64,000 nucleotides of DNA from a virus (lineage: Duplodnaviria; Heunggongvirae; Uroviricota; Caudoviricetes), in IMG/VR virus record IMGVR_UViG_3300012075_000001, positions 15,804 to 79,803 of that record, one strand, 5' to 3'. Shown in pieces: positions 916 to 36,434 of this stretch. A program made the translations under genes and the position numbers. The first letter of the stretch is position 1. Each line of letters starts with the position of its first letter. Below the pieces are notes generated by a model. That model saw only the letters and a list, made by a program, of their open reading frames with translations, ran no database searches and was not told the origin of the DNA.

Positions 916-1605
916 ATGACACATGAAAATGAATCTAAGAAAGCTGCATTGAATGCGCCCGCTTGCTTTGGCGCAGTTTCCTGCTTTTCTAGCGACAGCG
1001 CAGTCTGTAAAGAATGTCCAGCGTTTGAGCAATGCATTCCAGCGGTTAGTGAGACGTTAAACCGCATCAAAGGCGTAATTAACGTTGAGGACTATTTAAA
1101 GAAACATGAAAAGGCTAAACGCGAAGTTAAAGAACGTATCGAAGCGCGAATGAAACAAGAGAAAATCGAAAAAGAGGCTGAGCGCAGAGAAATGCCAATG
1201 CCTGATATGAAGGTTGCTCGCAAAACTAAAGTTGAGAAAGTCGAATTTAAATTAAGCGACGATCAAAACACCTTGATTGCTGAACTGCCTGTTAAAGCTC
1301 AGTCATTCGCGGTACAGCTTTGTAAGACTGGTTTAGTCGACCGTATCAAGAAAGACCTTACAGCTGGCAACAATCCACTCGAAAAGACTGGCCCAAAGTG
1401 GCTCGCAATTCTAATTGAGCTATTGATCAAAGGCGGTGTAACTCGCGCAGAGTTGAAATCAGCTTATATGAACCGCCTAGAGTGGTCTGACGGCACAGCT
1501 GGCAGTCACACGTCTTTAGCTTTCAAAATTTTTCTAGCATTTGAGATTGCCATCGAGACTGAATCGAAACTCGTAGCTAATCCTAAGTTATTTGAATCTA
1601 ATTAA
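916..1605 (+). CDS. hypothetical protein, Cys-rich N-terminus plus K/E-rich helical region
   Basis: CFGAVSCF...CKECPAFEQC suggests a metal-binding cluster; charged coiled-coil-like middle. Confidence 0.4.
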   Translation: MTHENESKKAALNAPACFGAVSCFSSDSAVCKECPAFEQCIPAVSETLNRIKGVINVEDYLKKHEKAKREVKERIEARMKQEKIEKEAERREMPMPDMKVARKTKVEKVEFKLSDDQNTLIAELPVKAQSFAVQLCKTGLVDRIKKDLTAGNNPLEKTGPKWLAILIELLIKGGVTRAELKSAYMNRLEWSDGTAGSHTSLAFKIFLAFEIAIETESKLVANPKLFESN

Positions 1606-8452: not shown

Positions 8453-9484
8453 ATGACAGCACAATCACAAATCGACGCTTTAAACGATGCATTATTCAAA
8501 ACAATTGGTGACAACCACACTGGACAAGCGGTTACTCAATGGATTGATACGGGTAACCCTGAACTAAACCGTATTATCTCAGGGCGGTATGATGGCGGTT
8601 TGCCATTTGGTCGAATGATTGAGGTGTTTGGTGAGCCTTCTACTGGTAAAACAGCTGACGCAACAGAATGGATGGTTCGAGCGCAGCAAATGGGCGGATG
8701 CGCAATCTTTATCGATTGGGAGCGCTCGTTTGATGTTGGTTTAGCTGAAGGGTTTGGCTTGACTACAGAACGTCCTTATTGGATCTACGCGAAGCCTAAA
8801 ACATGGGAAGAAGGCAACACGCTTGCTGCAAAAGCCTGTCAGTTAATTCGTGCGTCTAAAGCTATTCCAGACGACGCGCCAATTTTGGTTGTGTACGACT
8901 CAATTGCGGCTGCAATGCCTAAATCAGTTAATGAAAAAGGTATCGATGAATACACAATGAATGACACGACTGCTTTGGCTCGTGTTACATCGACAACTTT
9001 AAAAGCTATGGCCCAATACGCTGAAGACTTTAACGCAACGTTTGTTTACTTGAACCAAATGCGTTTAAAGCCGGGTGTTATGTTTGGTGACCCGCGTACT
9101 ACACCAGGCGGAAAAGCGATGGAGTTTTACGCTTCAGCTCGTTTAGCGCTTGGTCGTCAAAAGATTATGGACAAAGGTGAAACTGGCGATAAAGAGTTTG
9201 TGGGGCAAAACATTTCCGTCCAGTGTGTAAAAACAAAATTTACACGCCCGTTCCAAGAGTGCAACTTGCGCATGATGTACAACGAATTAGATGTAGCTTA
9301 TTTCGATCACGTTGCCTCTACCCTAGATTTGCTTATTAAACGTGGGTGGGTTGAATACAACAAGCCACGCGTAACTTGGACAGATGGCAAAAAATACTTT
9401 GTTAAAGATTTAGTTGCCAAATTAAACGCTGAACCTAATGGCATGGAGCAATTGAAAGCGCTCTTACCCAAGTCCAATAAATAA
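8453..9484 (+). CDS. RecA/UvsX-like recombinase
   Basis: GGLPFGRMIEVFGEPSTGKT resembles the RecA sequence [21 protein letters not shown] (Walker A). Confidence 0.7.
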   Translation: MTAQSQIDALNDALFKTIGDNHTGQAVTQWIDTGNPELNRIISGRYDGGLPFGRMIEVFGEPSTGKTADATEWMVRAQQMGGCAIFIDWERSFDVGLAEGFGLTTERPYWIYAKPKTWEEGNTLAAKACQLIRASKAIPDDAPILVVYDSIAAAMPKSVNEKGIDEYTMNDTTALARVTSTTLKAMAQYAEDFNATFVYLNQMRLKPGVMFGDPRTTPGGKAMEFYASARLALGRQKIMDKGETGDKEFVGQNISVQCVKTKFTRPFQECNLRMMYNELDVAYFDHVASTLDLLIKRGWVEYNKPRVTWTDGKKYFVKDLVAKLNAEPNGMEQLKALLPKSNK

Positions 9485-9556: not shown

Positions 9557-9910
9557 ATGAAACATTACGTTTTGGATTTTGTACCACCACTTCAAGGCAT
9601 GGATGATCGCTTCAATACGATTCGATTGGGGATTACATGGTCAAAGAAACTTGCCATTGGTGATCGAGTGTATCTCCAAAATTCAAAAACTAAAATGGTC
9701 GAAGGTTTAGCGGTTGTTGATCGAGTAATTGTCGGGAAGCTTGGCGAACTATGCGCTTATTACGGTGCTGATAATCACACCGAAGTTGACAGTGACGACA
9801 AGTGTAGAAGCGCAGAGCGTCTATATAAATTGACGTTAAAGCTTTACGGGCCACACATCGCAAACGCAATGAAGAAATCAACAGTTATTTATTTAAGGCG
9901 GATAGAGTGA
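9557..9910 (+). CDS. hypothetical small protein (possibly PUA/ASCH-like beta-barrel)
   Basis: ORF with ATG at 9557; only a weak fold guess. Confidence 0.35.
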   Translation: MKHYVLDFVPPLQGMDDRFNTIRLGITWSKKLAIGDRVYLQNSKTKMVEGLAVVDRVIVGKLGELCAYYGADNHTEVDSDDKCRSAERLYKLTLKLYGPHIANAMKKSTVIYLRRIE

Positions 9911-10308
9911 GTATAGAATTTAACAAAGAATTTTCCGAAGGAAAGTATAAAGGCGAAACGCCAGCTAGTCTGATTCTCATGCTTCAGAATAATGCAAATT
10001 TTGAAGGTGTTGATTATTTACTTTGGCGAAGAAAGAGCTACGGCACCCAAAACCCAGCAGGCTTCAAGTTTTATTATGATGCCATTACTAATGCTTTGAT
10101 TGACTCAATTGTTTATGAAGTGCCAGCACTGAAGAACAAATACCCTGTAACTGTTTACGCCAAACAAGAAGCTGCCAGCATTATTGATGAATATCAAAAG
10201 AAGGTCGAGCAGGAAGAAAAAGAAAGAGTTTTAGAAGAAGAACGCAAAGAGCGTGCTAGACAAGAACATGCCGCACGTTACAAGGGCCAATGGGGGAGCT
10301 GGGCGTAA
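9907..10308 (+). CDS. hypothetical protein; first member of a coupled array, ending ...KGQWGSWA
   Basis: GTG start overlapping the upstream stop (GTGA). Its C-terminus encodes the RBS and start of the next gene. Confidence 0.45.
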   Translation: MSIEFNKEFSEGKYKGETPASLILMLQNNANFEGVDYLLWRRKSYGTQNPAGFKFYYDAITNALIDSIVYEVPALKNKYPVTVYAKQEAASIIDEYQKKVEQEEKERVLEEERKERARQEHAARYKGQWGSWA

Positions 10309-10745
10309 TGCTAGAAGAACAGTTGGAGCCAGACCTAAACATTGTTGAGCATCTTTTTCAGCAAGATGATTATGTTTACCGCTTAATGTTTTTGAGCAAT
10401 TCGAATGGTAGCAAAGTGGCTTTTTTGAAGGGTTTATATAATTGGCAAGATCCACATACGCACCCAATGGAAACAATCCTTTTAACATCTGAAAACACCG
10501 AAAGAGACGAGGTGTTTGCCAACGGAACGACGTTCATTGAAGAAATCAAAAGGGATTTGTATGGAAAGGCTGAATATAACTGGTGGACATCACCCGTTTA
10601 TTTTAACGATAACAGTGAGATGTGTACGTTAGAGGCAAAACTAACCAGAACAATCGGGTCTTATTTGAGAAGAGAGGTTTTGAAGTTCTTTAGAGATCAA
10701 CCAGTTCCGCAACGCAACAATCCAAATTGGGGAGCATGGTCATGA
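10308..10745 (+). CDS. NPNWGAWS-tail paralog 1
   Basis: TAATG overlap with upstream gene. Ends NNPNWGAWS. Shares the KVAFLKG / KMAFVKG block with the next gene. Confidence 0.5.
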   Translation: MLEEQLEPDLNIVEHLFQQDDYVYRLMFLSNSNGSKVAFLKGLYNWQDPHTHPMETILLTSENTERDEVFANGTTFIEEIKRDLYGKAEYNWWTSPVYFNDNSEMCTLEAKLTRTIGSYLRREVLKFFRDQPVPQRNNPNWGAWS

Positions 10746-11263
10746 AATACATCCCGAATCTGAATGCACAGCTTTGCGTCTTAGAGTACCGATTTAGAAA
10801 CGAGTATGAAAATAGCTGCCTAATGGTTATCTCGACCTTGGACAGAGCTAAAATGGCTTTCGTCAAAGGTCACACACGCAGAGATGTACCGGAATTAGGC
10901 CCTCAACAATGGGAAGTGAAACTAGCTAATGATAAAAATAATGAGCGCATCAGATCAGATAGCGAAAGACTGTTTTATCCAAATGTCGGAGAACTGCATA
11001 GCTACGCCCTTGATGAAATTCATACCTATATGCGCGAACATAATGGAGTCAAACACAAATGTGAGCGCGAAGAGTACACCGTCTTATTTGATAATAAAGA
11101 TCAAGCTGGAACGTTAATTGGGAAAATGGAAAAATTCGTTGGAGGTACGAAAACAAGAGATGTTCTTAGTTTTCTTGGTGCTTATGTTGGTGTGGTAGAA
11201 AAAGTTACTGTTCAGCCTGAAGCGCCAAAAAGAACAAACCCTAATTGGGGAGCTTGGTCATGA
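10742..11263 (+). CDS. NPNWGAWS-tail paralog 2
   Basis: ATGA stop/start overlap, SD GGAG 7 nt upstream. Ends TNPNWGAWS. Confidence 0.5.
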   Translation: MKYIPNLNAQLCVLEYRFRNEYENSCLMVISTLDRAKMAFVKGHTRRDVPELGPQQWEVKLANDKNNERIRSDSERLFYPNVGELHSYALDEIHTYMREHNGVKHKCEREEYTVLFDNKDQAGTLIGKMEKFVGGTKTRDVLSFLGAYVGVVEKVTVQPEAPKRTNPNWGAWS

Positions 11264-11730
11264 AAAAAGGAATTTTATCAAATGAAATCCAAATCAAAGC
11301 TAAAGAGATAGTGGGTTTGGAAGGTTATAGAATTCGACTGGTTCTTTTGTTTAACAATCAGACAAGCACATATCTGATTTTTAAACATGATAGCCGTTTC
11401 ACATACGAAGTAACTAAAAAGCTTATAAAAGAGGTCGGAACTGACTTTGAGGCAATTAGTAGAATATTTGATGTTGAAGTGTATAGAGCGCTTGAGCAGG
11501 CTAATGTAGGAAAAGATGATTATAAAATAGAAATCGCAGAGGGCAAACTTAGCCAAAATGAGTTTGTGTCCGACCCCTCGTTGCTTCAAGTGGTTATTGA
11601 CAGTCTAATCAATGAGGTTCAAACGCACTTCGGCAAACAAGAGGCTGACGAAGCCTTAGAATATATTGGAATTCGCCAAGTCGAAGTCATTGAGCGCAGA
11701 AATACTCCTAATTGGGGAGCATGGTCATGA
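11260..11730 (+). CDS. NPNWGAWS-tail paralog 3
   Basis: ATGA overlap. Ends NTPNWGAWS. Confidence 0.5.
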   Translation: MKKGILSNEIQIKAKEIVGLEGYRIRLVLLFNNQTSTYLIFKHDSRFTYEVTKKLIKEVGTDFEAISRIFDVEVYRALEQANVGKDDYKIEIAEGKLSQNEFVSDPSLLQVVIDSLINEVQTHFGKQEADEALEYIGIRQVEVIERRNTPNWGAWS

Positions 11731-12092
11731 GAAAACCGCACTCAATCAATGGCAAACAAGTCGGTATGGTTTATACCCAAAACGGCAAATCAATCTACTT
11801 GGCCATGCGATCTGGAGCTAAAAATCGCAACATCGATCTAAAGACCAACTCTTGGCTTTTTGAGCCCATCATTATTAGCCACTGTATTAATAATTCAATT
11901 GATGCAATTGGGGTAGTTCACCGTGTAAATAAGAAATGCACATACTACCTCACTCCATTAAGCCACTTTATTGAGAACTGCGAACCTCACAGCACATCGA
12001 AAGGCTTATTCAAAAGGTTAAATATGAATAAATTCTTAATCAATTCAAACCGTTTTCACGGCAATGTTGAAAAATCCCTCAAAATTAAGTAG
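11727..12092 (+). CDS. hypothetical protein, last gene of the coupled array
   Basis: ATGA overlap with the previous gene. No NPNWGAWS tail. Confidence 0.4.
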   Translation: MRKPHSINGKQVGMVYTQNGKSIYLAMRSGAKNRNIDLKTNSWLFEPIIISHCINNSIDAIGVVHRVNKKCTYYLTPLSHFIENCEPHSTSKGLFKRLNMNKFLINSNRFHGNVEKSLKIK

Positions 12093-12163: not shown

Positions 12164-12376
12164 ATGAACATTTCTAACAATCGCACGATTGACCGAACAG
12201 CTAAAGCCTTAATTAAGGAAGGTTGGACGTATCGCCAAAGCAAAGGCGGTCACGTTGTCTTGAAAGACCCTGCAACGGGCTTCTCTCTCCCCGCTCCTGT
12301 TTCTCCTTCTTGCCATAGAGCCGAGAAAAATTGGCTTTCAGCTGTGAAGAAAATACGACAAGGAGTTCGACCATAA
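12164..12376 (+). CDS. HicA/YcfA-like small protein
   Basis: AKALIKEGWTYRQSKGGHVVLKDP matches the HicA pattern (LEK.GW...R.kGSH...). Confidence 0.4.
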   Translation: MNISNNRTIDRTAKALIKEGWTYRQSKGGHVVLKDPATGFSLPAPVSPSCHRAEKNWLSAVKKIRQGVRP

Positions 12377-12774
12377 TGATTTTGACATCCGCGCTGACAT
12401 GCCTAGCTTTGAACATTTACCACGAAGCACGAGGTGAACCAAAGCTAGGCAAAGAGTTAGTTGCAATTACCACCCTTAACCGTGCTGAAGGCGACAATAA
12501 TAAAATTTGTCAGGAAGTCCTTAGAAAACATCAATTCTCGTGGACTACAAGTAAGGTAAGCGGTAGAACGCTCAACAGCAGCGGAAAGCCAAAAGAAAAA
12601 GAAGCTTGGGAAGATTCAAAACGAATTGCTGAACAAGCCTTGAATGGTCGATTTTCAGTTCCAGTCCGATACAGCGGTGTTACTCATTTTTGTTCACATC
12701 GTAAACGGGGTTGGGAAAAACAACTCAAATATGTTGGTCAAATAGGCAACCATCATTTTTATATGGCAAAATAA
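12376..12774 (+). CDS. cell-wall hydrolase, SleB/CwlJ (Hydrolase_2) family
   Basis: NIYHEARGE...VAITTLNRAEG...ICQEVLRKHQFSW matches the Hydrolase_2 motifs. TAATG-coupled to the HicA-like gene, SD AGGAG. Confidence 0.6.
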   Translation: MILTSALTCLALNIYHEARGEPKLGKELVAITTLNRAEGDNNKICQEVLRKHQFSWTTSKVSGRTLNSSGKPKEKEAWEDSKRIAEQALNGRFSVPVRYSGVTHFCSHRKRGWEKQLKYVGQIGNHHFYMAK

Positions 12775-13906: not shown

Positions 13907-15858
13907 TGGAATTTTTAACACTCAAAATTAATAACTTCTTAACGATTGGCGAAGCTCGTCTTGATTTGGCTAATCGTGGTTTATTGTTGGTGCAAGGTGA
14001 AAACAAAGATAATACGTCCGCAGACTCTAACGGTTCCGGTAAGTCATCCATTGTTGACGCTTTATGCTGGTGTCTCTACGGAACTACAGCACGAGACGTT
14101 ACAGGCGATATGGTCATTAATAAGACGGCCAAAAAGGATTGTTCGGTCGAACTCACGATTCATGACAATGGACAGTGTTACAAAATCGCTCGTCACCGCA
14201 AACATGCGACACACAAAAACGCATTAATCGTTTTAAAGACAGATATTCACGGCAACGAGTTACCTAACGGCAATATCACAAAAGGCACCGACAAAGAGTC
14301 ACAAGAGTTGGTGATTGATATCGTCGGCTCTACTCTCGATGTATTTATGTCATCCGTATACGCTGGTCAGGAAATGATGCCTAACCTCCCTGCCCTTACG
14401 GATAAAAACTTAAAGGTGCTTATCGAAGAAGCTGCCGGTATTCAAGTTTTAGAACAAGCGCACACGGTCGCAAAACGTAAGTTGGCTGAAGTTAAAGGTA
14501 AGCTCTCTAATAAGCTCGCTATTCGCGATAACTTTGCGACGGTACTTGCGACCATGCAAGGGCAATTGGCAGACACTCAAGCGAAACTAGCGCAATTTGA
14601 CGCAACAAAAGAGTCACGCGCTAAAGTTGTTCTAGCTGAAGTGTTACCGCTGAGACAGGCGGTCGAAAATATCAAAGCGAATATTGGCAAGACCGACATT
14701 AATTCTCTTAATGCCGAGAAACAATCAATTGTAGCCGCGATTAATAAAATTGAAGCTATCTCGAATCAAGCTCAACAACTTGGGAAGATCCGCGATGACT
14801 TGGGTATGAAGTACCGCATCACTAATAATACTTATATCTCTTTAAATACTAATTTAAATAACTTAGTGACCAAAATTAAAGGCATCGACGGTTTAGTAGG
14901 TACGCCTTGTACACAGTGCGGTAAAGAGTATTGCAAGGATGATTTACAGCAAGCGCGAACGGCCCAAATCACACACGCTCAAACGGTCAAGCAAGACACG
15001 CTAAATGCCAAAAACGAAATGGAGCAAGCCAAAGAAGCGTTTGAACTGGCTGAAAAGAACCTTGCTGAGTTTGTTCGGAACAACCCACACGATGCCCGTA
15101 AGTTATATGCAGATTTAGCAGCTGTTGAAGGCGCAATTACCGCATTCAATTCCTCAAGCGAAGACATCAACCGCAAGATGACGGAAATCGAGCAAATCAA
15201 GATGCGTGCAAAAGGGGTTATGACAGAACAAAACCCTTTCAAGGTAATGGAAGCAGATCAACAAGCGAAGATTGCGGATTACGTTAATAAGAACTCTGCA
15301 ATCGACCAAGAAATTGCGGAGCTTCAAAAAACCGTCGAGCTACACGAACATGCGGTTCAGATCTATGGCCCTTCAGGAGTTCGGGCACACATTCTCGATA
15401 CTGTTACGCCGTTTTTGAATGAACGTACTGAAGACTATCTCGGCGCACTCACTGACGGCAACACTCATGCTGTTTGGTCAACCTTAACGCTAAACAGCAA
15501 AAAAGAACTCAAGGAAAAATTCACCATCGACGTTCGAGACAATACGGGCGGTGAATCATTCAAAGGTTTAAGCGGCGGTGAAAAACGCAAGGTTCGTTTA
15601 GCTACCGCTTTGGCCCTTCAAGATCTGGTTGCAAGTCGTGCCTCTAAGCCAATTAGCTTATTTATTGGTGATGAGATCGATGACGCCTTAGATAAATCAG
15701 GACTTGAGCGTCTTATGGGTGTGCTTGAGCGCAAAGCTCGAGAGCGAGGAACAGTCATCGTCGTTTCGCATTCTGAATTGCGAGATTGGATTGACGATGT
15801 TGTGGTGGTCACTAAAGAAAACGGTTATTCGACCGTAAGCGGTGCAAACCTCGTTTAA
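13906..15858 (+). CDS. Rad50/SbcC-family ATPase (T4 gp46-like)
   Basis: Walker A NGSGKSS, long coiled-coil middle, signature LSGGEKRKV, Walker B LFIGDEID. TAATG-coupled to the Mre11 gene. Confidence 0.8.
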   Translation: MEFLTLKINNFLTIGEARLDLANRGLLLVQGENKDNTSADSNGSGKSSIVDALCWCLYGTTARDVTGDMVINKTAKKDCSVELTIHDNGQCYKIARHRKHATHKNALIVLKTDIHGNELPNGNITKGTDKESQELVIDIVGSTLDVFMSSVYAGQEMMPNLPALTDKNLKVLIEEAAGIQVLEQAHTVAKRKLAEVKGKLSNKLAIRDNFATVLATMQGQLADTQAKLAQFDATKESRAKVVLAEVLPLRQAVENIKANIGKTDINSLNAEKQSIVAAINKIEAISNQAQQLGKIRDDLGMKYRITNNTYISLNTNLNNLVTKIKGIDGLVGTPCTQCGKEYCKDDLQQARTAQITHAQTVKQDTLNAKNEMEQAKEAFELAEKNLAEFVRNNPHDARKLYADLAAVEGAITAFNSSSEDINRKMTEIEQIKMRAKGVMTEQNPFKVMEADQQAKIADYVNKNSAIDQEIAELQKTVELHEHAVQIYGPSGVRAHILDTVTPFLNERTEDYLGALTDGNTHAVWSTLTLNSKKELKEKFTIDVRDNTGGESFKGLSGGEKRKVRLATALALQDLVASRASKPISLFIGDEIDDALDKSGLERLMGVLERKARERGTVIVVSHSELRDWIDDVVVVTKENGYSTVSGANLV

Positions 15859-15958: not shown

Positions 15959-16588
15959 GTGAGTATCAGTGAAGATTTAGAGGAAATCGTCCTCGCACAG
16001 CTAGAGCAGGAGGACAAATTAGTTAAGCAGCACATGGAGGCATGCAAGTTAGAAGATTTAGAGCTTGTCGAAAAGGTCAAAGAAATCCTGACCGGAGTTG
16101 TAAATCAGATGAACGCTGAATTTGATATGAATCAAGAAGATCCTGAATCTTCTGTTTTGTCATTCGCCAATCAATTCATGTTGATTCAAGGTGGAAACAT
16201 TCAGGTTCGAAAAATTTTCAAGAGCGGTGCCGATTCATGGTCACAACGTGAGTTCTTAGGGGGTGAAACTTTTCTTTTGTATCAAGCTGGGATTAACGAA
16301 ACCCTTATAGAGCAAGCAAATCTTTGGACTCAAGAAGGCTTTTTCGACTTAATTCATCTTCGCTTCAAGCCGACATTTGCAGCTGACTTTACAGAAATCA
16401 TGGTTGATATCTGGCGCGGTCAAGAACTCTTTAACGGATTGAAAGAGACATTGACGGAAGTGTTTGACAGCTTCTCGTTTAGACCCGCGATCAAATCAAT
16501 CATGGAAGCAAAAACGGAAATTCTCAAGCTCCGCAATGCGCGTGAGCAAAAAATCCTAAGTTTAAGAAAGAACGTTACAGTGTGGTAA
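15959..16588 (+). CDS. hypothetical protein
   Basis: GTG start with SD AGGAGA. Confidence 0.4.
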   Translation: MSISEDLEEIVLAQLEQEDKLVKQHMEACKLEDLELVEKVKEILTGVVNQMNAEFDMNQEDPESSVLSFANQFMLIQGGNIQVRKIFKSGADSWSQREFLGGETFLLYQAGINETLIEQANLWTQEGFFDLIHLRFKPTFAADFTEIMVDIWRGQELFNGLKETLTEVFDSFSFRPAIKSIMEAKTEILKLRNAREQKILSLRKNVTVW

Positions 16589-17338: not shown

Positions 17339-17929
17339 ATGAGCAATGATAACTTAAAGCACTTCATGGAGGGGAATGCCGCTCGCATTATCATTCGGTT
17401 GAATCCGTTTGAAAGAGATGCTCAAAGCGCATTTGAATTTAGCAAGAGAAAGGCTGAGCATCACGCGATAGATGATGGCTTTATTTCGGCAGAGTGTTTG
17501 AAGTGTCATTGTTTTAATGTGGAGCACGAAGTTGTTCGCAATCACATGCTTTGTGATGACGAAGTAAGAACGACATTTAGATGTAATTCCAGAACAATTT
17601 TTCGCCCGTCAATGTGCCCCGTTTTAGGTGTCCCAAGCGACCTAACGACAAGTATTGCAAATCTCACATCTCAAATAAGTTCGATGGGTCCATCGATCAA
17701 AGCAAGTGCGAGTGCAATAAGTTCGCTGTCTAGTCGAGTTAGTGACTTGTATGTAAGTGATAGAAAAGCCGAATCGTGGGATGGCTATTTTGAAGATTCA
17801 GGCATTATCTCTGAGCCAAAACCACCAAAGAAAACGCCAGAAGAGCTACAAAAAGAGCTAGAGGAAGGCTCAGATGAACTGGCGGGCATTACTAAAGATA
17901 TGCCTCGAAGTGGTGGGGTGGCGTGGTGA
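17339..17929 (+). CDS. hypothetical protein (Cys/His cluster)
   Basis: ORF follows a promoter-like motif and hairpin. Confidence 0.4.
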   Translation: MSNDNLKHFMEGNAARIIIRLNPFERDAQSAFEFSKRKAEHHAIDDGFISAECLKCHCFNVEHEVVRNHMLCDDEVRTTFRCNSRTIFRPSMCPVLGVPSDLTTSIANLTSQISSMGPSIKASASAISSLSSRVSDLYVSDRKAESWDGYFEDSGIISEPKPPKKTPEELQKELEEGSDELAGITKDMPRSGGVAW

Positions 17930-17934
17930 TAATA

Positions 17935-18246
17935 ATGCACAGACCTCGAAGCATGGGAAGATCAGCATTTCATAAAGAATTTATGGAACAACTTACAAAA
18001 GAAAAGTTAAGACAAGGTAAAGATGTTTGGATGACATCTACACCTTCCAAGCAATCACCAAAGGCGATTTACATGGATGAATGCGACTACCAAGATCACA
18101 TGCTAGATGCTTGGACAAAGGTGATGTTTGCAAACCTTGTCAAAGACGGAAAAGCAGTTGTGACAGTTGATTCCAACGAAGCGGAACCAGAAAAGGTTAT
18201 TCCGCTTAACTCAGATAAACCCCGAACAAAAGCAATTGTTTGGTAA
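17935..18246 (+). CDS. hypothetical protein
   Basis: ATG at 17935 within the ORF. Confidence 0.35.
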   Translation: MHRPRSMGRSAFHKEFMEQLTKEKLRQGKDVWMTSTPSKQSPKAIYMDECDYQDHMLDAWTKVMFANLVKDGKAVVTVDSNEAEPEKVIPLNSDKPRTKAIVW

Positions 18247-18291: not shown

Positions 18292-20682
18292 ATGACCAAC
18301 CGTGTAACCAAACGCAACGGCTCTACGGAGTCTTTTTCTCATGAAAAAATTGAGAAAGCGGTAATTTGGGCCACAAAAGATACGAATGTGCCACCTCAAT
18401 TAGTTATTGATAATGCGATTATGCTTATCTATGACGGCATCAAAACAAGCGACATACAAGAAGCGTTAATCAGCGCAGCGTCTAAGTTAACTTCTGCAAC
18501 CATGACAGATGCTTCATTTGTTGCGGCCCGCTTATTGTTGCTAGATTTGTACAAACATATTTGCGGGGAAAAGGGCAAGGTTGACGGTGGTGGTTTTCAA
18601 TACCCTCACATCAAAGATTACATTCAGGAAGGTGTAAATAACAAACTTCTTGACCCTGTATTGTTGCAGTCTTACGACTTAGAAAAAATCAACGCCGCAA
18701 TTAAACCTGAGCGTGATTTGCTGTTTGGTTATCTAGGCTTAGACACGCTGAAAGACCGTTACTTTATTCGCAAAAATCGCGATATCAAGTACGAGAAAGA
18801 CACGGGCAAACCTTCAGGTGAGATTATCGAATTGCCGCAGCATTTCTGGATGCGTGTTGCAATGGGCGTGGCTATCAAAGAAAAGCCTGAGAATCGTACA
18901 GCTCGCGCACTTGAGTACTATGAAATGTATTCGCCTTTAGACTACGTTTCATCAACACCAACATTATTCAATGCCGGAACGCTGCGCCCTCAACTGTCTA
19001 GCTGTTACTTAAACCAAGTGTCTGACACGATCACGGCAGAGCTTGGTGACAGCCGCTATGCATCAATTTTTGGCGCGATTGAAGAAACGGCCCTGCTTTC
19101 TAAATTTGCTGGTGGTATTGGTACAGACTGGACGCCTGTGCGTGGTGAAAATGAAATCATCATTGGAACCAATGGTATTTCAAGTGGTGTAGTTCCTTAC
19201 ATTAAGGTTCAGAACAACACTGCCGTTGCAGTTAACCAAGGTGGCAAACGCAAAGGATCTGTCGCGCCTTATCTTGAATCTTGGCATCCTGATTTCATGG
19301 CATTCTGTGAACTCAAGAAGGAAGCTGGCGATGACCGACTCCGCGCTCATGATACCTTCCCTGCTGCTTGGGTTCCTGATCTGCTTGTAAAACGCAAGGA
19401 AGACCCGGAAGCAATGTGGTCGTTCTTCTCTCCACATAAATTCCCTGAACTTCACGAATTGTACGGCGAAGCTTTTGAAACGCGCTATGAAGAACTTGAA
19501 GCGTTGAAAGAGTTTGAGTTCCAGTTGCCAGCGCTGAAAGTATGGCGTCATATTCTTTCTAACTTGTTTGAAACGGGCCACCCTTGGATTACATATAAAG
19601 ACGAAAGTAACCGCCGTAATCCTCAATCGCATGTTGGTGTAATTCATCACAGTAACTTGTGTACTGAAATTACGCTAAATAGCTCTAAAGAAGAAACTGC
19701 TGTTTGTAACTTAGGTTCTATTAACTTACCCAAAACAATGAGCGGCCCTAAACCTTTAGAAAAATTGCGTCAAATTGTACGCCTTGCTGTTCGCAATCTT
19801 GACTCGGTAATTGATGTCAATTACTACCCTTCAGAGCGTGCTAAGCGTTCTAACTTGCGTCATCGCCCGATTGGTTTAGGTGTGATGGGTTACTACGAGT
19901 GGCTTGTGAAGCAGGGCGTTGATTTTGAAAGTGACCAACACCTCGAACAAGCCGATGCTTTATTTGAAGCAATCTCTTATTTCGCAATTGAAGCCTCTGC
20001 GGACTTAGCTCAAGAGCTTGGCTCGTACCCATCGTTTGAAGGCTCTAAGTGGTCACAAGGTATCTTGCCAATTGATACCGCTAAAAAGATGGAAGATGGC
20101 AAGCCATTCTTTGACCGTCCACGCCGTTTTGATTGGGATGCTTTACGCGAAAAAGTCAAAAAAGGCATGCGTAACTCAAACATCATGGCAATTGCACCTA
20201 CTGCAACGATTTCGAACATTGCCGGCACAACCCAATGTACAGAAGTGCCGTTCTTGCTTCAGTACTACAAAACCAATTTAGGTGGCGTATACAAAATCGT
20301 TGACCCTTCTGTTCGCCATGTTGGTGACAACTTCCACCTTCTTAAAGAAGCGTTCTACGTTGATCAAATGTGGATTATCAAAAGCGCTGCTGTTCGTCAG
20401 AAGTGGATTTGCCAATCTCAGTCTACCAACCTGTTTGCAGCACAAGGCACAACTGGTAAAGACCTAGATGTGATGTATTCAAAAGCGTATGAATACGGCT
20501 TGAAAACCACCTATTACTTGCGTGGCCAATCAGCAACCAAGGGTTCAGCTTCAGCGAAAGCCGAAGTAATTGAGGCTTTAAAAGCTGCCGCTGCTCAGGT
20601 TAGTGTTTTGAGCGATGCGGAAGCCCAACAACAAGCTAAATTATGTTCGATTTTCGAGCCTGATTGCGAAAGCTGCCAATAA
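18292..20682 (+). CDS. nrdA: ribonucleotide reductase class Ia large subunit
   Basis: N-terminal ATP-cone (VTKRNGSTESFSHEKI), NLCTEI active-site motif, C-terminal Cys tail. Confidence 0.9.
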   Translation: MTNRVTKRNGSTESFSHEKIEKAVIWATKDTNVPPQLVIDNAIMLIYDGIKTSDIQEALISAASKLTSATMTDASFVAARLLLLDLYKHICGEKGKVDGGGFQYPHIKDYIQEGVNNKLLDPVLLQSYDLEKINAAIKPERDLLFGYLGLDTLKDRYFIRKNRDIKYEKDTGKPSGEIIELPQHFWMRVAMGVAIKEKPENRTARALEYYEMYSPLDYVSSTPTLFNAGTLRPQLSSCYLNQVSDTITAELGDSRYASIFGAIEETALLSKFAGGIGTDWTPVRGENEIIIGTNGISSGVVPYIKVQNNTAVAVNQGGKRKGSVAPYLESWHPDFMAFCELKKEAGDDRLRAHDTFPAAWVPDLLVKRKEDPEAMWSFFSPHKFPELHELYGEAFETRYEELEALKEFEFQLPALKVWRHILSNLFETGHPWITYKDESNRRNPQSHVGVIHHSNLCTEITLNSSKEETAVCNLGSINLPKTMSGPKPLEKLRQIVRLAVRNLDSVIDVNYYPSERAKRSNLRHRPIGLGVMGYYEWLVKQGVDFESDQHLEQADALFEAISYFAIEASADLAQELGSYPSFEGSKWSQGILPIDTAKKMEDGKPFFDRPRRFDWDALREKVKKGMRNSNIMAIAPTATISNIAGTTQCTEVPFLLQYYKTNLGGVYKIVDPSVRHVGDNFHLLKEAFYVDQMWIIKSAAVRQKWICQSQSTNLFAAQGTTGKDLDVMYSKAYEYGLKTTYYLRGQSATKGSASAKAEVIEALKAAAAQVSVLSDAEAQQQAKLCSIFEPDCESCQ

Positions 20683-20760: not shown

Positions 20761-21753
20761 ATGACATACGCAAACCGAATTAATGATCGACGTTTAATTT
20801 TGGGTCCAAAGGATGACCTAATGGCGATCAGCCCGATGAAACACACGTGGGCCAGAGACATTCATCAACGCATGAAGGACAACAACTGGTTTCCTGAAGT
20901 GGTCGACTTGAGCAATGAAGGCATTTGCTATCGAGACAAGCTTACCGAAGCGGAACGTCGATTGTATGACAAGAGCCTTGCGTTTTTATCGAACCTTGAC
21001 GGTATCCAATTTCACAATATCAACCAAAATATTGCCAAGCATGTAACCTCTCCTGAAGTTGCTATTTGTTTATCCCGTCAAGCATGGGAAGAAGCAAACC
21101 ATGTGGAATCTTACGCTAAGCTCGTTGAAACCGTCTCTACAGATCCAATGAGTGTCTATATGACATTTGAGCGTGATGGTATTTTGGCGAAGAAAAACGA
21201 GTTTATTTTGCGTCAATCACGTATCTTGGGCGACCAATTTACAGCACGCGGTTTTGGGCTTTCATGTATTTCAAACGTCATGCTTGAGGGTGTTTACTTT
21301 TTCTCTGGGTTCTTAGGCTTCTACTTGCTTGCAGATAAAGGCAAAATGCTCGGTTCGGCAGATATGATTCGTTATATCCAGCGTGATGAAGAAGGTACAC
21401 ACCTTGATCTGTTCACCCACATGCTTGATACATTGCGCATCGAAAACTCAGAAATTTTCACAAATTCATTTTGGGACGATACGGCTGAATTAATCGACTC
21501 TTCAACCAAAATGGAGATTAGCTGGGGTCAATACGTTCATCAAGGCGTTACCAATCCCGAAGCAATCGAGTTGTATATCAAATCGTTAGCGAATAAGCGT
21601 GCCATTCAAATTAATGCACCGTTTGTGCCTTATCCTGGTGTGGTTAATCCGTTTCAGTGGGTAGAAGAATTTTCAAAGCCAAATACCGCCGAGAAGAACT
21701 TCTTTGAATCGCGGGTAACTGATTATAAGTCTGGTGGTGCATTAGCATGGTAA
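20761..21753 (+). CDS. nrdB: ribonucleotide reductase small subunit
   Basis: Di-iron ligand motifs (EEANHVESY, EGTH) and size. Confidence 0.85.
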   Translation: MTYANRINDRRLILGPKDDLMAISPMKHTWARDIHQRMKDNNWFPEVVDLSNEGICYRDKLTEAERRLYDKSLAFLSNLDGIQFHNINQNIAKHVTSPEVAICLSRQAWEEANHVESYAKLVETVSTDPMSVYMTFERDGILAKKNEFILRQSRILGDQFTARGFGLSCISNVMLEGVYFFSGFLGFYLLADKGKMLGSADMIRYIQRDEEGTHLDLFTHMLDTLRIENSEIFTNSFWDDTAELIDSSTKMEISWGQYVHQGVTNPEAIELYIKSLANKRAIQINAPFVPYPGVVNPFQWVEEFSKPNTAEKNFFESRVTDYKSGGALAW

Positions 21754-29475: not shown

Positions 29476-29934
29476 ATGCTACATAAATGCCCTAACGCTG
29501 GTTGTTCTAAAACCTTCTTTTTTAAACGTAACATGACCTGCTCAAACTGCGACGGAAGTAAACGTACTCCGCGTGTGCATTCTACGCCCGTGGCAGCGTC
29601 GCGTTACTCAAGTAATGACTTAACTCCTGAAGCGTTGTATGCGCAACAGAACGCTATGCAGCTGAATAACACATTGTTGGCACTAGAAAGCTCTGACAGC
29701 TCAAAAGACTGCAAATCTAGCGATGACAGCCACATTCGCCGTAATCAATGTGAAGATACCCCTTCTCGTACAGAGCCGTCATATACGCATTCTCATAGTC
29801 ATAGCAGCCATGATCACAGTAGCTCTTCGACTTCTTCATCTAGCGACAGTTGGAGTTCTTCATCTTACAGCTCAGACAGTAGCTCATCGTATGACAGCGG
29901 AAGCAGTTCGTCTTCTTCTGACAGTAGTTGGTAG
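29476..29934 (+). CDS. zinc-finger protein with extreme Ser/His-rich C-terminal tail
   Basis: CPNAGC...CSNC N-terminus. About 60 C-terminal residues are almost entirely S/H/D/Y. Confidence 0.45.
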   Translation: MLHKCPNAGCSKTFFFKRNMTCSNCDGSKRTPRVHSTPVAASRYSSNDLTPEALYAQQNAMQLNNTLLALESSDSSKDCKSSDDSHIRRNQCEDTPSRTEPSYTHSHSHSSHDHSSSSTSSSSDSWSSSSYSSDSSSSYDSGSSSSSSDSSW

Positions 29935-29939
29935 ATAAC

Positions 29940-30278
29940 ATGCGCACTACAGCGATGAAACTTGATTGGCATTGGTCGAAACCAAAAGAAAAAATTAGCC
30001 GTTTGGTTGCAACTCAAGCCATTAAACACCTAACTGAACATGGCTTTAACAATGACGATGCAAAGTTTTACTTTCGCGAATGCCGCGATGGATTCTATTA
30101 CAACGCTGAATCAAATATTTGGATGCTTGAATTTGCAGATAAAGCAAAGTGTTTAATAGATGATGATTGGGTTTTTCTTTCATCTAACACTAATGTGATA
30201 CATGAAGACCCTGAAGTGCTTCCGCTAATAGAGGTTGAGCGTATCGCTTTACGGATGATAACGATCTCAAATGATTAA
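29940..30278 (+). CDS. hypothetical protein
   Basis: ORF only. Confidence 0.4.
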   Translation: MRTTAMKLDWHWSKPKEKISRLVATQAIKHLTEHGFNNDDAKFYFRECRDGFYYNAESNIWMLEFADKAKCLIDDDWVFLSSNTNVIHEDPEVLPLIEVERIALRMITISND

Positions 30279-30322
30279 ATAATGTTTGGTTAATTGTTTT
30301 TATGAAAAATAATTACCAATAA

Positions 30323-30344
30323 ATCAGTCAGTACTGACTATACT
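30323..30344 (+). promoter_or_regulatory. palindromic motif + TATACT
   Basis: Perfect AGTCAGTACTGACTATACT. Confidence 0.5.
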
Positions 30345-30429
30345 TTTCGCCATAGAAGCACGAAAGGGAACGCTAAGACGTTTAGCGGTGCTTTTATAAA
30401 GTTCAAAATTAATTTTAGGAATACAAAAG

Positions 30430-31179
30430 ATGTGCTTTCACTGTTTTGCAGAAGATATCAAAAAATCGGGTCTAGGCGAAGTTGTTGTTTTGGAAATGAC
30501 AAAAGATGGTTTGCGTCCAGTTAATCTCAAACCAACAGGTAACGAAACCGCCATTAGCAACTTGGTTGGCGAAACAATTAAAGCGGCTCAAGCGAGAGGA
30601 GAAGCGCTTCAGCATAACAATATCTCAAACCGTGGGGCCGCAGGTGTTGCGGGTGTAAGCATTACAGACAGTGGTGTAATTGCGGGTATGGGTCTTACTG
30701 GCAAAGCAACCAAAGCTGAAGGCAAAATCGGCACAGCGGGAACGAGCCACAGCATCTTGACTAAACCGCTACCAGAAAAAGCAAACTTCGTTGCTTTGGG
30801 CGGCAATACAATTAAAGCCACAAACATCAACACATTAGATCAAGCATATACAGCAAGCGAAAAAATGCATCGCTTTGTTGTTCCAAATCTTGATGAATTA
30901 TTGCTTCGCACTCAAGCAAGTGTAGGCGCGTTAAGTGGTTTAAGCGTTCACTTAAACAATGGCGATGAAGATAAGTACTCGGAGGAACAATACGTCAAAG
31001 AGCTTATTAAGTTGACCGCTTTGAACTTCATGTCACTTCAGGAACGCGGCGTTGCTTTAGAAGATGTTGTGAAAGCAGTTACCCAAACTTTTGAAGAAAT
31101 GGGTACTCAAACGCTCCGTAACGAAATGACCAACTTCCTTAAAGAACGTGGTTTTGCCACTGATGTGAAGGCGGGTTAA
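30430..31179 (+). CDS. hypothetical protein (Gly/Ala-rich middle)
   Basis: Follows a promoter-like motif. Confidence 0.4.
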   Translation: MCFHCFAEDIKKSGLGEVVVLEMTKDGLRPVNLKPTGNETAISNLVGETIKAAQARGEALQHNNISNRGAAGVAGVSITDSGVIAGMGLTGKATKAEGKIGTAGTSHSILTKPLPEKANFVALGGNTIKATNINTLDQAYTASEKMHRFVVPNLDELLLRTQASVGALSGLSVHLNNGDEDKYSEEQYVKELIKLTALNFMSLQERGVALEDVVKAVTQTFEEMGTQTLRNEMTNFLKERGFATDVKAG

Positions 31180-31181
31180 TC

Positions 31182-31415
31182 ATGCCACGCGTCATCGTAC
31201 ACCAAGCAACAGACGGCACACTTCACCGCACTTATGACGAATATGTAAAGCATGAAGAGGCGTGTCGAATTGATGATGAATATGACAAGTCCAGTCTTCC
31301 GGTTCATCTAGATCACGTGAATGTTAAGTCATTCATCATCGACAACAAGGATGTTATCGAACAGATCATCCTTAAATCCAAAGTTAAACGTAAGGCCCAG
31401 CCTAAGAAGAAATGA
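31182..31415 (+). CDS. hypothetical protein
   Basis: ORF only. Confidence 0.35.
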   Translation: MPRVIVHQATDGTLHRTYDEYVKHEEACRIDDEYDKSSLPVHLDHVNVKSFIIDNKDVIEQIILKSKVKRKAQPKKK

Positions 31416-31594
31416 TCTCGATTCTCTTCAAAACACTTTTAATCATCCTTGTCGTTGTTGCATTTGTAACAGCGGCATTTAACTCAAACATTCGCAAAAA
31501 AGCGCTTGGTCACATGAATAAATACAGATGGCAAATTTTAGTTGTCATCACTGTTCTTTTGGCTATTTACGTTTATGCGACTTTAGGAACTTAA
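31412..31594 (+). CDS. small two-TM membrane protein (holin-like size)
   Basis: Two hydrophobic helices in 60 aa. Confidence 0.4.
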   Translation: MISILFKTLLIILVVVAFVTAAFNSNIRKKALGHMNKYRWQILVVITVLLAIYVYATLGT

Positions 31595-36041: not shown

Positions 36042-36089
36042 TCAGTAATGATTAGGAGGGTTCGCCCTCCTTAAACTAAGGTGCTAGTG

Positions 36090-36434
36090 ATGAATTTAGA
36101 CGTATTGAAAAAATTAACGAATGAGGCCCTTTTCAAGCTGCAAGAGGGTGTGAAAGAAGAATTAGAAAGCCGTATAGATTACAGTGTTGGGGTTGGTAAG
36201 TGCGGAACTTTTTATGATCGCCGACTCGGTGTTCAGCGCCGCGTTCGAATTACAAAGGTTAATTCCAAATCCGTAACCGCTGTTGAGACTGGCGATAGTT
36301 ATGCTCCGGGTGAAAACTGGCGTATAAGTGCAACTTTGCTAAAAATAGAAGGTGTTATAAGAAAAGAGCGCAAAATAAAGCCTCGCGAAGAAGGGCCTAA
36401 GAAAATGGTCACAAAGTCTGAAAACGTATGGTAA
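36090..36434 (+). CDS. hypothetical protein
   Basis: SD AAGGTG before the ATG. Terminator follows. Confidence 0.4.
   Translation: MNLDVLKKLTNEALFKLQEGVKEELESRIDYSVGVGKCGTFYDRRLGVQRRVRITKVNSKSVTAVETGDSYAPGENWRISATLLKIEGVIRKERKIKPREEGPKKMVTKSENVW

Follow-up and report, generated by a model that had tools for sequence, protein, structure and literature searches.

A C-terminal aromatic-Gly-x-Trp tail as a probable docking motif on interchangeable gene cassettes of an Acinetobacter phage-plasmid

Short C-terminal peptides serve as docking sites in several well-described systems. The C-terminal tip of SSB (...DDDIPF) and the acidic, Phe-terminated tails of T7 gp2.5 and gp4, which bind the T7 polymerase, are disordered peptides whose last or last but one residue is aromatic and whose carboxylate is free, and by which proteins of DNA metabolism reach a common site. 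Clamp-binding motifs, such as the bacterial QL[S/D]LF and the C-terminal tails of T4 gp43, gp33 and gp55, are short, often C-terminal, hydrophobic or aromatic peptides as well, through which one hub receives many clients, phage proteins among them, and proteasome activators plug a pocket on a large assembly with their HbYX motif, in which an aromatic residue in the last or penultimate position acts together with the free C-terminus. In McdB, an invariant C-terminal Trp binds carboxysomes, and a single C-terminal Trp can carry the interaction (PMC11321042). Here we analyse an array of small genes in a 64,000-nucleotide stretch of a tailed-virus genome (IMG/VR record IMGVR_UViG_3300012075_000001, positions 15,804 to 79,803; hereafter the window), in which four consecutive genes end in a common Trp-Gly-x-Trp tail. 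We propose that this tail is a C-terminal short linear docking motif of the form aromatic-Gly-x-Trp, carried by interchangeable accessory cassettes, a reading to which we assign a probability of about 0.55.

By its DNA matches and gene content, the element belongs to the AB family of Acinetobacter phage-plasmids and is related to Nickievirus and SSU5-like elements. The region matches 27 Acinetobacter baumannii plasmids in PLSDB (105-114 kb, non-mobilizable, 86% identity) that have siphovirus-type structural genes, RepB and ParA/ParB, and one of them, the related plasmid NZ_CP026705, encodes terminase, portal, capsid and tail proteins together with RepB, ParA/ParB, DnaB, primase, ligase, a gp32-like SSB, RecA, SbcCD and RNR. 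The Acinetobacter AB family of phage-plasmids has been described as distantly related to the SSU5 superfamily. Searches of the INPHARED phage collection with the DNA and with one of the array proteins (G3, below) returned no close or distant relative of the region; among cultured phages, Pseudomonas phage nickie and Stenotrophomonas phage BUCTxx99 come closest, judged by RecA similarity and synteny. An earlier note on this DNA had likened the locus to arrays of T4-like phages, a setting that has to be given up, the closest DNA being that of A. baumannii phage-plasmids and not of Straboviridae. The likeness to T4-like hyperplastic regions, namely a cluster of small, fast-evolving, coupled ORFans whose content varies between close relatives, is nevertheless real, yet the element is not T4-like and its cassettes share a C-terminal tag that apparently doubles as a recombination junction, which to our knowledge has not been reported for those regions.

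Between 9557 and 12092, the plus strand of the window holds six genes without intergenic space, joined by stop/start overlaps of 1-4 nt, as read from the sequence and the listing of its open reading frames. The starts chosen by PGAP in NZ_CP026705 match those called here:

9557-9910, + strand: G0 (phrog_3705), upstream edge, conserved, without tail, ending ...IYLRRIE; its TGA overlaps the GTG start of G1 (GTGA)
9907-10308, + strand: G1, 133 aa (phrog_9337), charged helical C-terminal part, then the tail ...RYKGQWGSWA; TAATG overlap with G2
10308-10745, + strand: G2, 145 aa (phrog_5427), tail ...NNPNWGAWS; ATGA overlap with G3
10742-11263, + strand: G3, 173 aa (phrog_5427), paralog of G2, tail ...TNPNWGAWS; ATGA overlap with G4
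11260-11730, + strand: G4, 156 aa, ORFan cassette, tail ...NTPNWGAWS; ATGA overlap with G5
11727-12092, + strand: G5, 121 aa (phrog_9044), downstream edge, conserved, without tail, ending ...KSLKIK

The consecutive, overlap-joined genes (GTGA, TAATG and three times ATGA) read in the sequence as the earlier note had described them, and no sigma-70-like promoter was found on the plus strand between 8300 and 13000, which fits a single long transcript. The shared tails likewise stand: G2-G4 end in PNWGAWS and G1 in KGQWGSWA. A count of WG[AS]W in the six-frame open reading frames of the window (40 aa or longer) gives four occurrences in all, one at the C-terminus of each of G1-G4, against an expectation of about 0.02 (Poisson P ~1e-8). 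The tail of G1 is conserved among orthologs that are 74% identical overall.

The proteins in front of these tails, which the earlier note took for a paralogous array, are related in one pair only. G2 and G3, two of the four tagged genes, are detectably paralogous, aligning over their full length (BLASTP E=5e-13) and matching the phrog_5427 profile over its whole length (E=5.5e-54 and 5.9e-61, respectively). We compared all tagged proteins with hhalign, all against all, using small ortholog alignments for each gene from which the last 10 residues had been removed. G2 and G3 alone gave a significant match (E=4.8e-6), whereas every pair involving G1, G4, Gx (an extra tagged cassette that is present in relatives and not in the window) or the two distant tagged genes described below (H1 and H2) gave E>=0.005 and a probability of at most 7%. 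In pairwise alignments, G4 meets G2 and G3 at the C-terminal end only, and G1 versus G2 is not significant. The similarity of protein bodies stated in the earlier note thus remains for G2 and G3 and disappears for G1 and G4 without their last 10 residues; its corollary, that in such a case only the ribosome-binding junction would be conserved, does not follow, since the peptide itself is conserved.

Database searches place these proteins in no family of known role. G0, G1, G2, G3 and G5 match PHROG families over their full length (E 1e-44 to 1e-83), all annotated as unknown function. For G4 and Gx, no family of PHROG, Pfam or NCBIfam matched. With G0-G5 as queries, sequence searches of Pfam, NCBIfam and PDB gave nothing significant, and G1-G5 have no Pfam match to the WGR domain (PF05406). 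A HMMER search of 1.84 billion representatives with the G2/G3 profile recovered the own lineage only, plus a fourth match to a 2137-aa repeat protein (P0011) that we rejected as spurious, a scan of GTDB genomes with the G2/G3 alignment found nothing, and word-indexed protein searches with G1, G3 and G4 stayed within the A. baumannii lineage.

The earlier note had implied that the tail belongs to the array and its junctions. However, two more tagged genes of NZ_CP026705 lie about 85 kb from the array, next to DnaB/primase:

98190-98705 of NZ_CP026705: distant tagged gene ending ...YGSKWGAWS (TGG GGT GCG TGG TCA), followed by a 26-nt gap
98732-99124 of NZ_CP026705: distant tagged gene ending ...SLVWGSWS (TGG GGT AGT TGG AGT), followed by an 82-nt gap

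Neither gene is coupled to a successor, and their codons are unlike the TGG GGA GCW TGG TCA of the array. The implied tie is hence broken twice, by uncoupled genes that spell the tail in other codons and by unrelated proteins elsewhere, to which we now turn. The survey across phages covered four complete genomes and was complemented by pattern scans. Of the annotated proteins of nickie, eight have the C-terminus [F/I/A/M]-G-[G/S/T]-W-[A/S], and another two finish in WGTW and YGIW, respectively; two of these eight tagged genes stand just after SbcCD, and most use a GCA-TGA (ATGA) overlap with the next gene. Orthologs on a second nickie-like contig (L140) keep the tails with conservative changes. 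In BUCTxx99, 11 proteins end in Y-G-x-W, nine of them in one run of overlapping genes directly downstream of an AAA+ ATPase (30078-31523) and a cell-wall hydrolase:

L129 16459-18029, L129 32645-43513 and L129 49970 to L130 392 (record coordinates 66459-100392): tagged genes of nickie
L131 27312-30074, - strand: nine-gene tagged run of BUCTxx99, of which the first two genes encode BRCT domains (Pfam 31 bits, above cutoff)

In the tails of both phages, Gly, Phe and Tyr are encoded by freely varying synonymous codons. Such tails are far in excess of expectation, with 4 observed versus 0.009 expected in NZ_CP026705, 11 versus 0.10 in BUCTxx99 and 6 versus 0.085 in nickie under the strict pattern (10 with the loose one), corresponding to P values of 5e-10 to 4e-19 in these genomes, or 1e-8 to 4e-19 once the window is counted in. 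The SSU5-like Klebsiella phage-plasmid pJN2-26, taken as a control, has no such tail, though it carries the same replication, recombination and head genes.

A further carrier is a replisome organizer (DnaD/O-like) of A. baumannii prophages, which ends in ...NADLNYGDW and whose gene overlaps the start of a DnaB-type helicase gene. Scanning the viral contigs of IMG/VR for NYGDW-stop-ATG, we found about 34 A. baumannii prophages with this organizer, for example:

L169 10092-10985 and 10985-12310: organizer with NYGDW tail, coupled to the DnaB-type helicase
L203 3001-5219 (Acinetobacter phage 5W): the same pair

A related organizer with a different C-terminal half, whose helicase is 33% identical, ends in ...PINYLD. 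The corresponding scan of viral contigs for WGAWS-stop gave, outside the Acinetobacter lineage and among the matches listed, scattered single matches, mostly in high-GC contigs, that look like chance.

Variation within one gene tells a similar story. The commonest G3 variant in public assemblies ends in ...NPNYSKRTNPNWGLFS, with the linker duplicated and A-W changed to L-F; the copy at NZ_CP026705 8276-8794 (L007 4235-4753) has the altered tail ...KRTNPNYSKRTNPNWGLFS. GCA-TGG has become TTA-TTT by several base changes with an aromatic residue kept. A frameshifted 113-aa form of G3 (P0005) also exists, in 27 contigs. Altogether, the pattern of tails argues that selection acts on the tail at the peptide level, independently of coupling.

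Within the array, the same nucleotides do serve further ends. The 24-nt junction CCAAATTGGGGAGCATGGTCATGA, which the earlier note had placed at 10722, 11240 and 11707, matches there with 0, 2 and 1 mismatches, respectively, compared with no match in 100 shuffles when up to two mismatches are allowed. The mismatches are synonymous third positions (CCA/CCT, GCA/GCT), and a repeat search lengthens the near-identical junctions to 38 nt:

10291-10305, + strand: core codons of the G1 tail, WGSWA = TGG GGG AGC TGG GCG, with GGGGGAG within as Shine-Dalgarno (SD) sequence for G2
10713-10750, + strand: junction repeat copy 1, with the NPNWGAWS tail of G2, the SD GGGGAG and the ATGA overlap with G3
11231-11268, + strand: junction repeat copy 2, G3 tail and G4 start
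11698-11735, + strand: junction repeat copy 3, G4 tail and G5 start

The suggestion that the WGAW codons double as SD and spacer for the next gene is upheld in a narrower form, GGA/GGG being fixed in coupled genes only. The Trp-Gly codons, TGG-GGA-G, give GGAG or GGGAG 7-9 nt 5' of the next ATG, which is the usual spacing in this genome. Gly is encoded by GGA or GGG in all five coupled tagged gene types (17 sequences), while only 26% of all Gly codons in the genome are of these two kinds (P ~0.001 with the five types taken as independent; such codon-choice P values are rough, orthologous tails being only partly independent), and by GGT in the two uncoupled tagged genes. The codon of the last Ser or Ala (TCA/GCA) followed by TGA creates the ATGA overlap. 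In BUCTxx99, tails with a TAATG overlap end at Trp, and several neighbouring tagged genes overlap by 11-14 nt; read from the coordinates, the next start codon appears in some of these overlaps to lie within the tail codons (TAT GGN contains ATG). Since GGA/GGG is confined to coupled genes and TCA/GCA makes the ATGA, the peptide is, judging by codon usage, primary, and codon choices within the tail have been adapted to coupling. Indeed, 17 other coupled gene pairs of the same genome embed an SD in the last codons of other C-terminal peptides, so the SD requirement does not dictate the tail peptide. RNA folding at the junctions revealed no shared or unusual structure (z-scores -0.8 to +1.8).

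The junctions also mark where whole genes come and go, as the arrangements among relatives reveal:

G1-G2-G3: three tagged genes, in the 27 plasmids and six IMG/VR contigs
G1-G2-G3-G4: four tagged genes, in the window
G1-G2-Gx-G3: four tagged genes, in the relative L010
G1-G2-Gx-G3-G4: five tagged genes, in the relative L008 and about two dozen contigs

No PLSDB plasmid has G4 or Gx, the 27 related ones included. L008 and L010 are 98-100% identical in RecA, G0, G1, G2, G5, HicA, hydrolase and SbcD, but their identity is 82% in Gx and 75% in G3, and of the two only L008 has G4. Mismatches between them begin about 60 nt past the G2/Gx junction and cease at the junction repeat between G4 and G5, and the boundary of the presence or absence of G4 falls exactly at junction repeat copy 3. 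The G3 of the window is closest to that of L010 (89%), the other window genes being equidistant from both. This mosaic of L008, L010 and the window is the pattern expected from recombination at or beside the junction repeats. Gain and loss of whole genes at these repeats, as foreseen in the earlier note, is thus supported by arrays of three, four or five tagged genes with breakpoints that appear to lie at or next to junctions.

Structure prediction is consistent with a folded body that carries a loose end. The AlphaFold2 model of G3, based on an alignment of five sequences, has a mean pLDDT of 78.6 and a pTM of 0.75 and arranges a five-stranded sheet, a helix, a strand, two helices and one short strand before the tail. 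Behind this confident core, residues 153-173 (linker and tail) fall below a pLDDT of 50, at about 40 over the last 21 residues. The order of elements is broadly similar in the G4 model, which is poor (pLDDT 58.6). In the four window proteins, the hydrophobic fraction of the linker (the 15 residues before the motif) is 0.07-0.27 versus 0.35-0.38 in the bodies. The tail is hence predicted to be disordered.

Taken together, the tail has the marks of a short linear motif: it is brief and conserved as a peptide, lies in a predicted disordered region and is fixed at the C-terminus of otherwise unrelated proteins. It comes in genome-specific dialects (W-G-A-W-S, F-G-G-W-A and Y-G-x-W). The carriers comprise two BRCT domains, a WGR-like protein below threshold (the product of NZ_CP026705 98190-98705; PF05406, 16.8 bits, E=0.0076, gathering cutoff 22 bits), ORFans and the DnaD/O-like replisome organizer; those with a recognisable domain point to functions in DNA breaks, replication initiation or repair. 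A docking motif would be the simplest account of a C-terminal, disordered motif that is conserved as a peptide on unrelated proteins, varies by dialect and sits in DNA-metabolism regions. From these patterns we infer that the motif binds a receptor, and likewise what that receptor may be.

The tail nevertheless fits the consensus of none of the systems described at the outset, as far as its residues tell. Compared with the SSB tip and the T7 tails, the tails of BUCTxx99 and nickie are also preceded by acidic residues, and those of BUCTxx99 (..PENYGDW) resemble the SSB tip more than the window tails do, which have K/R before the motif and Ser or Ala last. In the Acinetobacter lineage, the tails are basic before the motif and end in Ser/Ala; the motif itself is aromatic-Gly-x-Trp, and many carriers are small ORFans and not core replisome proteins. 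Unlike clamp-binding motifs, NPNWGAWS and KGQWGSWA have no Gln-Leu...Leu-Phe pattern, with Gly and Trp invariant instead, and no clamp gene was found in the element. HbYX and McdB are alike in principle only, these systems and proteins being unrelated to the tail carriers. Searching the literature for this motif, or for phages whose proteins share a Trp tag at the C-terminus, returned nothing relevant apart from the McdB analogy.

Under the docking reading, the array would be the place in the replication-recombination module where small accessory genes collect and are interchanged, a hot spot for such cassettes. Each cassette would consist of a small folded domain, a hydrophilic disordered linker of about 15-20 residues and the C-terminal motif, [N/D/polar]-aromatic-Gly-x-Trp with an optional Ala/Ser and a free carboxylate, which in this lineage takes the form (P)N-W-G-A/S-W-S/A. 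By this motif, many unrelated proteins would all dock in a single pocket of a shared receptor, most likely a replication or recombination component of the phage or the host. Because the tag stands at the very end of each gene, its codons have been co-opted for expression and evolution of the array: TGG-GGA-G acts as SD for the next gene, the last codon (NCA) with TGA forms the ATGA restart overlap, and the near-identical junctions of 24-38 nt would be homology patches at which whole cassettes are inserted, deleted or swapped.

Several points weigh against this account. The step from tail to docking is drawn from patterns in the sequence, with a receptor that is a candidate only. The support for disorder comes from one shallow-alignment model of five sequences, the G4 model being poor. 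Residues before the motif are basic in Acinetobacter and acidic in BUCTxx99 and nickie, so the tails may not all bind the same kind of site. DnaB, primase, DnaE, RecA, SbcCD and CobS/T-like genes are also present in the untagged pJN2-26, and comparing gene presence and absence in the three tagged genomes and this untagged one yielded no convincing receptor candidate. Finally, a shared degron would give the same sequence signature.

This last possibility is the main rival: the tail could be a common degradation tag by which a host protease (Lon, ClpXP/ClpAP or similar) keeps potentially toxic accessory proteins or initiators short-lived. A disordered, exposed and strictly C-terminal tail on unrelated proteins, one of them a replisome organizer, fits this almost as well as docking does, the more so as instability is known from phage initiators such as lambda O and Lon favours exposed segments rich in aromatic residues. 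Yet the degrons known for proteases are degenerate, while the Gly and Trp of the present tail hardly vary either within a lineage or between lineages, and the motif is absent from the related enterobacterial phage-plasmid, where the same proteases are available; we therefore regard a degron as rather unlikely. More improbable still are two other explanations, both less likely than docking or a degron. A sorting tail, by which proteins would enter the procapsid, the virion or some other compartment built by the phage and be delivered with the DNA, would resemble encapsulin cargo-loading peptides, the T4 capsid-targeting sequence and the P1 Dar proteins, as a short terminal peptide on unrelated cargo is the hallmark of such systems and the phages concerned share HK97-type head genes. 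However, the tagged genes lie in replication/recombination and early-type small-gene regions and outside the structural module, pJN2-26 lacks tags although its portal, capsid and head genes are homologous (55-56% identity), and the replisome organizer acts at the origin, all of which makes this the least probable of the explanations weighed here.

The model of the earlier note, in which duplicated paralogs keep tail and junction through nucleotide constraints (SD, spacer, ATGA) and gene conversion, explains much of the array itself: there is one genuine pair of paralogs in G2 and G3, only coupled genes have Gly fixed to GGA/GGG, the final GCA/TCA makes the ATGA while the TAATG tails of BUCTxx99 end at Trp, and the junctions are near-identical over 24-38 nt. 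As an account of the tail it is contradicted by the uncoupled and cross-phage tails, that is, by the genes 85 kb away with other codons and by the Pseudomonas and Stenotrophomonas phages with free codons and different overlap types. The missing homology of G1, G4 and Gx to G2/G3, the 17 other coupled pairs with other peptides and the lack of a conserved RNA structure at the junctions speak in the same sense, and we consider it highly improbable.

As to the receptor under the docking reading, the coupling of organizer and helicase makes the DnaB-type helicase a weak lead. The genes that fit the presence/absence pattern are the one for a 229-aa phrog_3616 protein, two encoding structural proteins and NrdB, none of which is informatively annotated. 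The phrog_3616 gene (window 916-1605) stands immediately upstream of DnaE and is present in the three tagged genomes and not detected in pJN2-26; it fits the profile of a receptor candidate weakly, four genomes being compared. For NrdB, we considered that the tag might mimic its tail (...GGALAW in the window, ...KGLEW in nickie), and dropped this as the BUCTxx99 NrdB (22% identical) does not end in Trp. More broadly, and as a tentative extension only, a plug-and-play system may operate in siphophages and phage-plasmids of about 105-115 kb and some temperate Acinetobacter phages, in which dozens of unrelated small proteins would use one tag for a single replication/recombination receptor, possibly the ring of the DnaB-type helicase, and the DNA of the tag would also be restart site and the recombination joint by which phages exchange cassettes.

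NrdB is one of six other plus-strand genes of the window that end in a terminal Trp without the W-G-x-W core:

15959-16588, + strand: ends ...RKNVTVW
17339-17929, + strand: ends ...PRSGGVAW
17923-18246, + strand: ends ...PRTKAIVW
20761-21753, + strand: NrdB, ends ...YKSGGALAW
29476-29934, + strand: ends ...SSDSSW
36081-36434, + strand: ends ...KSENVW

In NZ_CP026705, Trp stands within the last two residues of 10 of the 122 proteins (P=5.5e-4). These genes may form a second, looser class of the same tag or be unrelated to it; the terminal tail of NrdB presumably binds NrdA.

The array is surrounded by genes for a gp32-like SSB, a 5'-3' exonuclease, RecA, SbcCD and a RuvC-like protein. G0 has homologs in nickie (38% identity) and pJN2-26, and in nickie SbcD directly follows the G0 homolog, so that, compared with nickie, the array has been inserted together with the genes for the HicA-like protein and the cell-wall hydrolase. 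The HicA-like open reading frame (12164-12376; Pfam 20 bits, cutoff 27) is TAATG-coupled to a SleB-type hydrolase gene (12376-12774) and has no obvious HicB partner, an odd pairing within a recombination module; in BUCTxx99, a cell-wall hydrolase is likewise found near the tagged array. The RecA-like protein has 343 aa in the window (8453-9484), L008 and L010 versus 498 aa in NZ_CP026705 (L007 1484-2980), which suggests that the latter copy carries an insertion or extension. Inside its nrdA region, NZ_CP026705 further bears an island bounded by IS26 that contains aph(3')-Ia, mph(E) and msr(E) (L013 17544-24159); the window instead has an uninterrupted open reading frame of 796 aa (18292-20682).

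In summary, if the tail is a docking tag, one peptide would open a whole set of otherwise uncharacterisable ORFan proteins to experiment, since their common partner could be named and client proteins of newly sequenced genomes could be predicted from the tag. The same 24 nucleotides would then encode a protein motif, a translation signal and a recombination joint, and this triple use would explain how cassettes are swapped as complete and correctly expressed units. As these elements are hosted by Acinetobacter baumannii and IS26-borne resistance genes are found in members of the family, the function of their accessory genes is also of practical interest.

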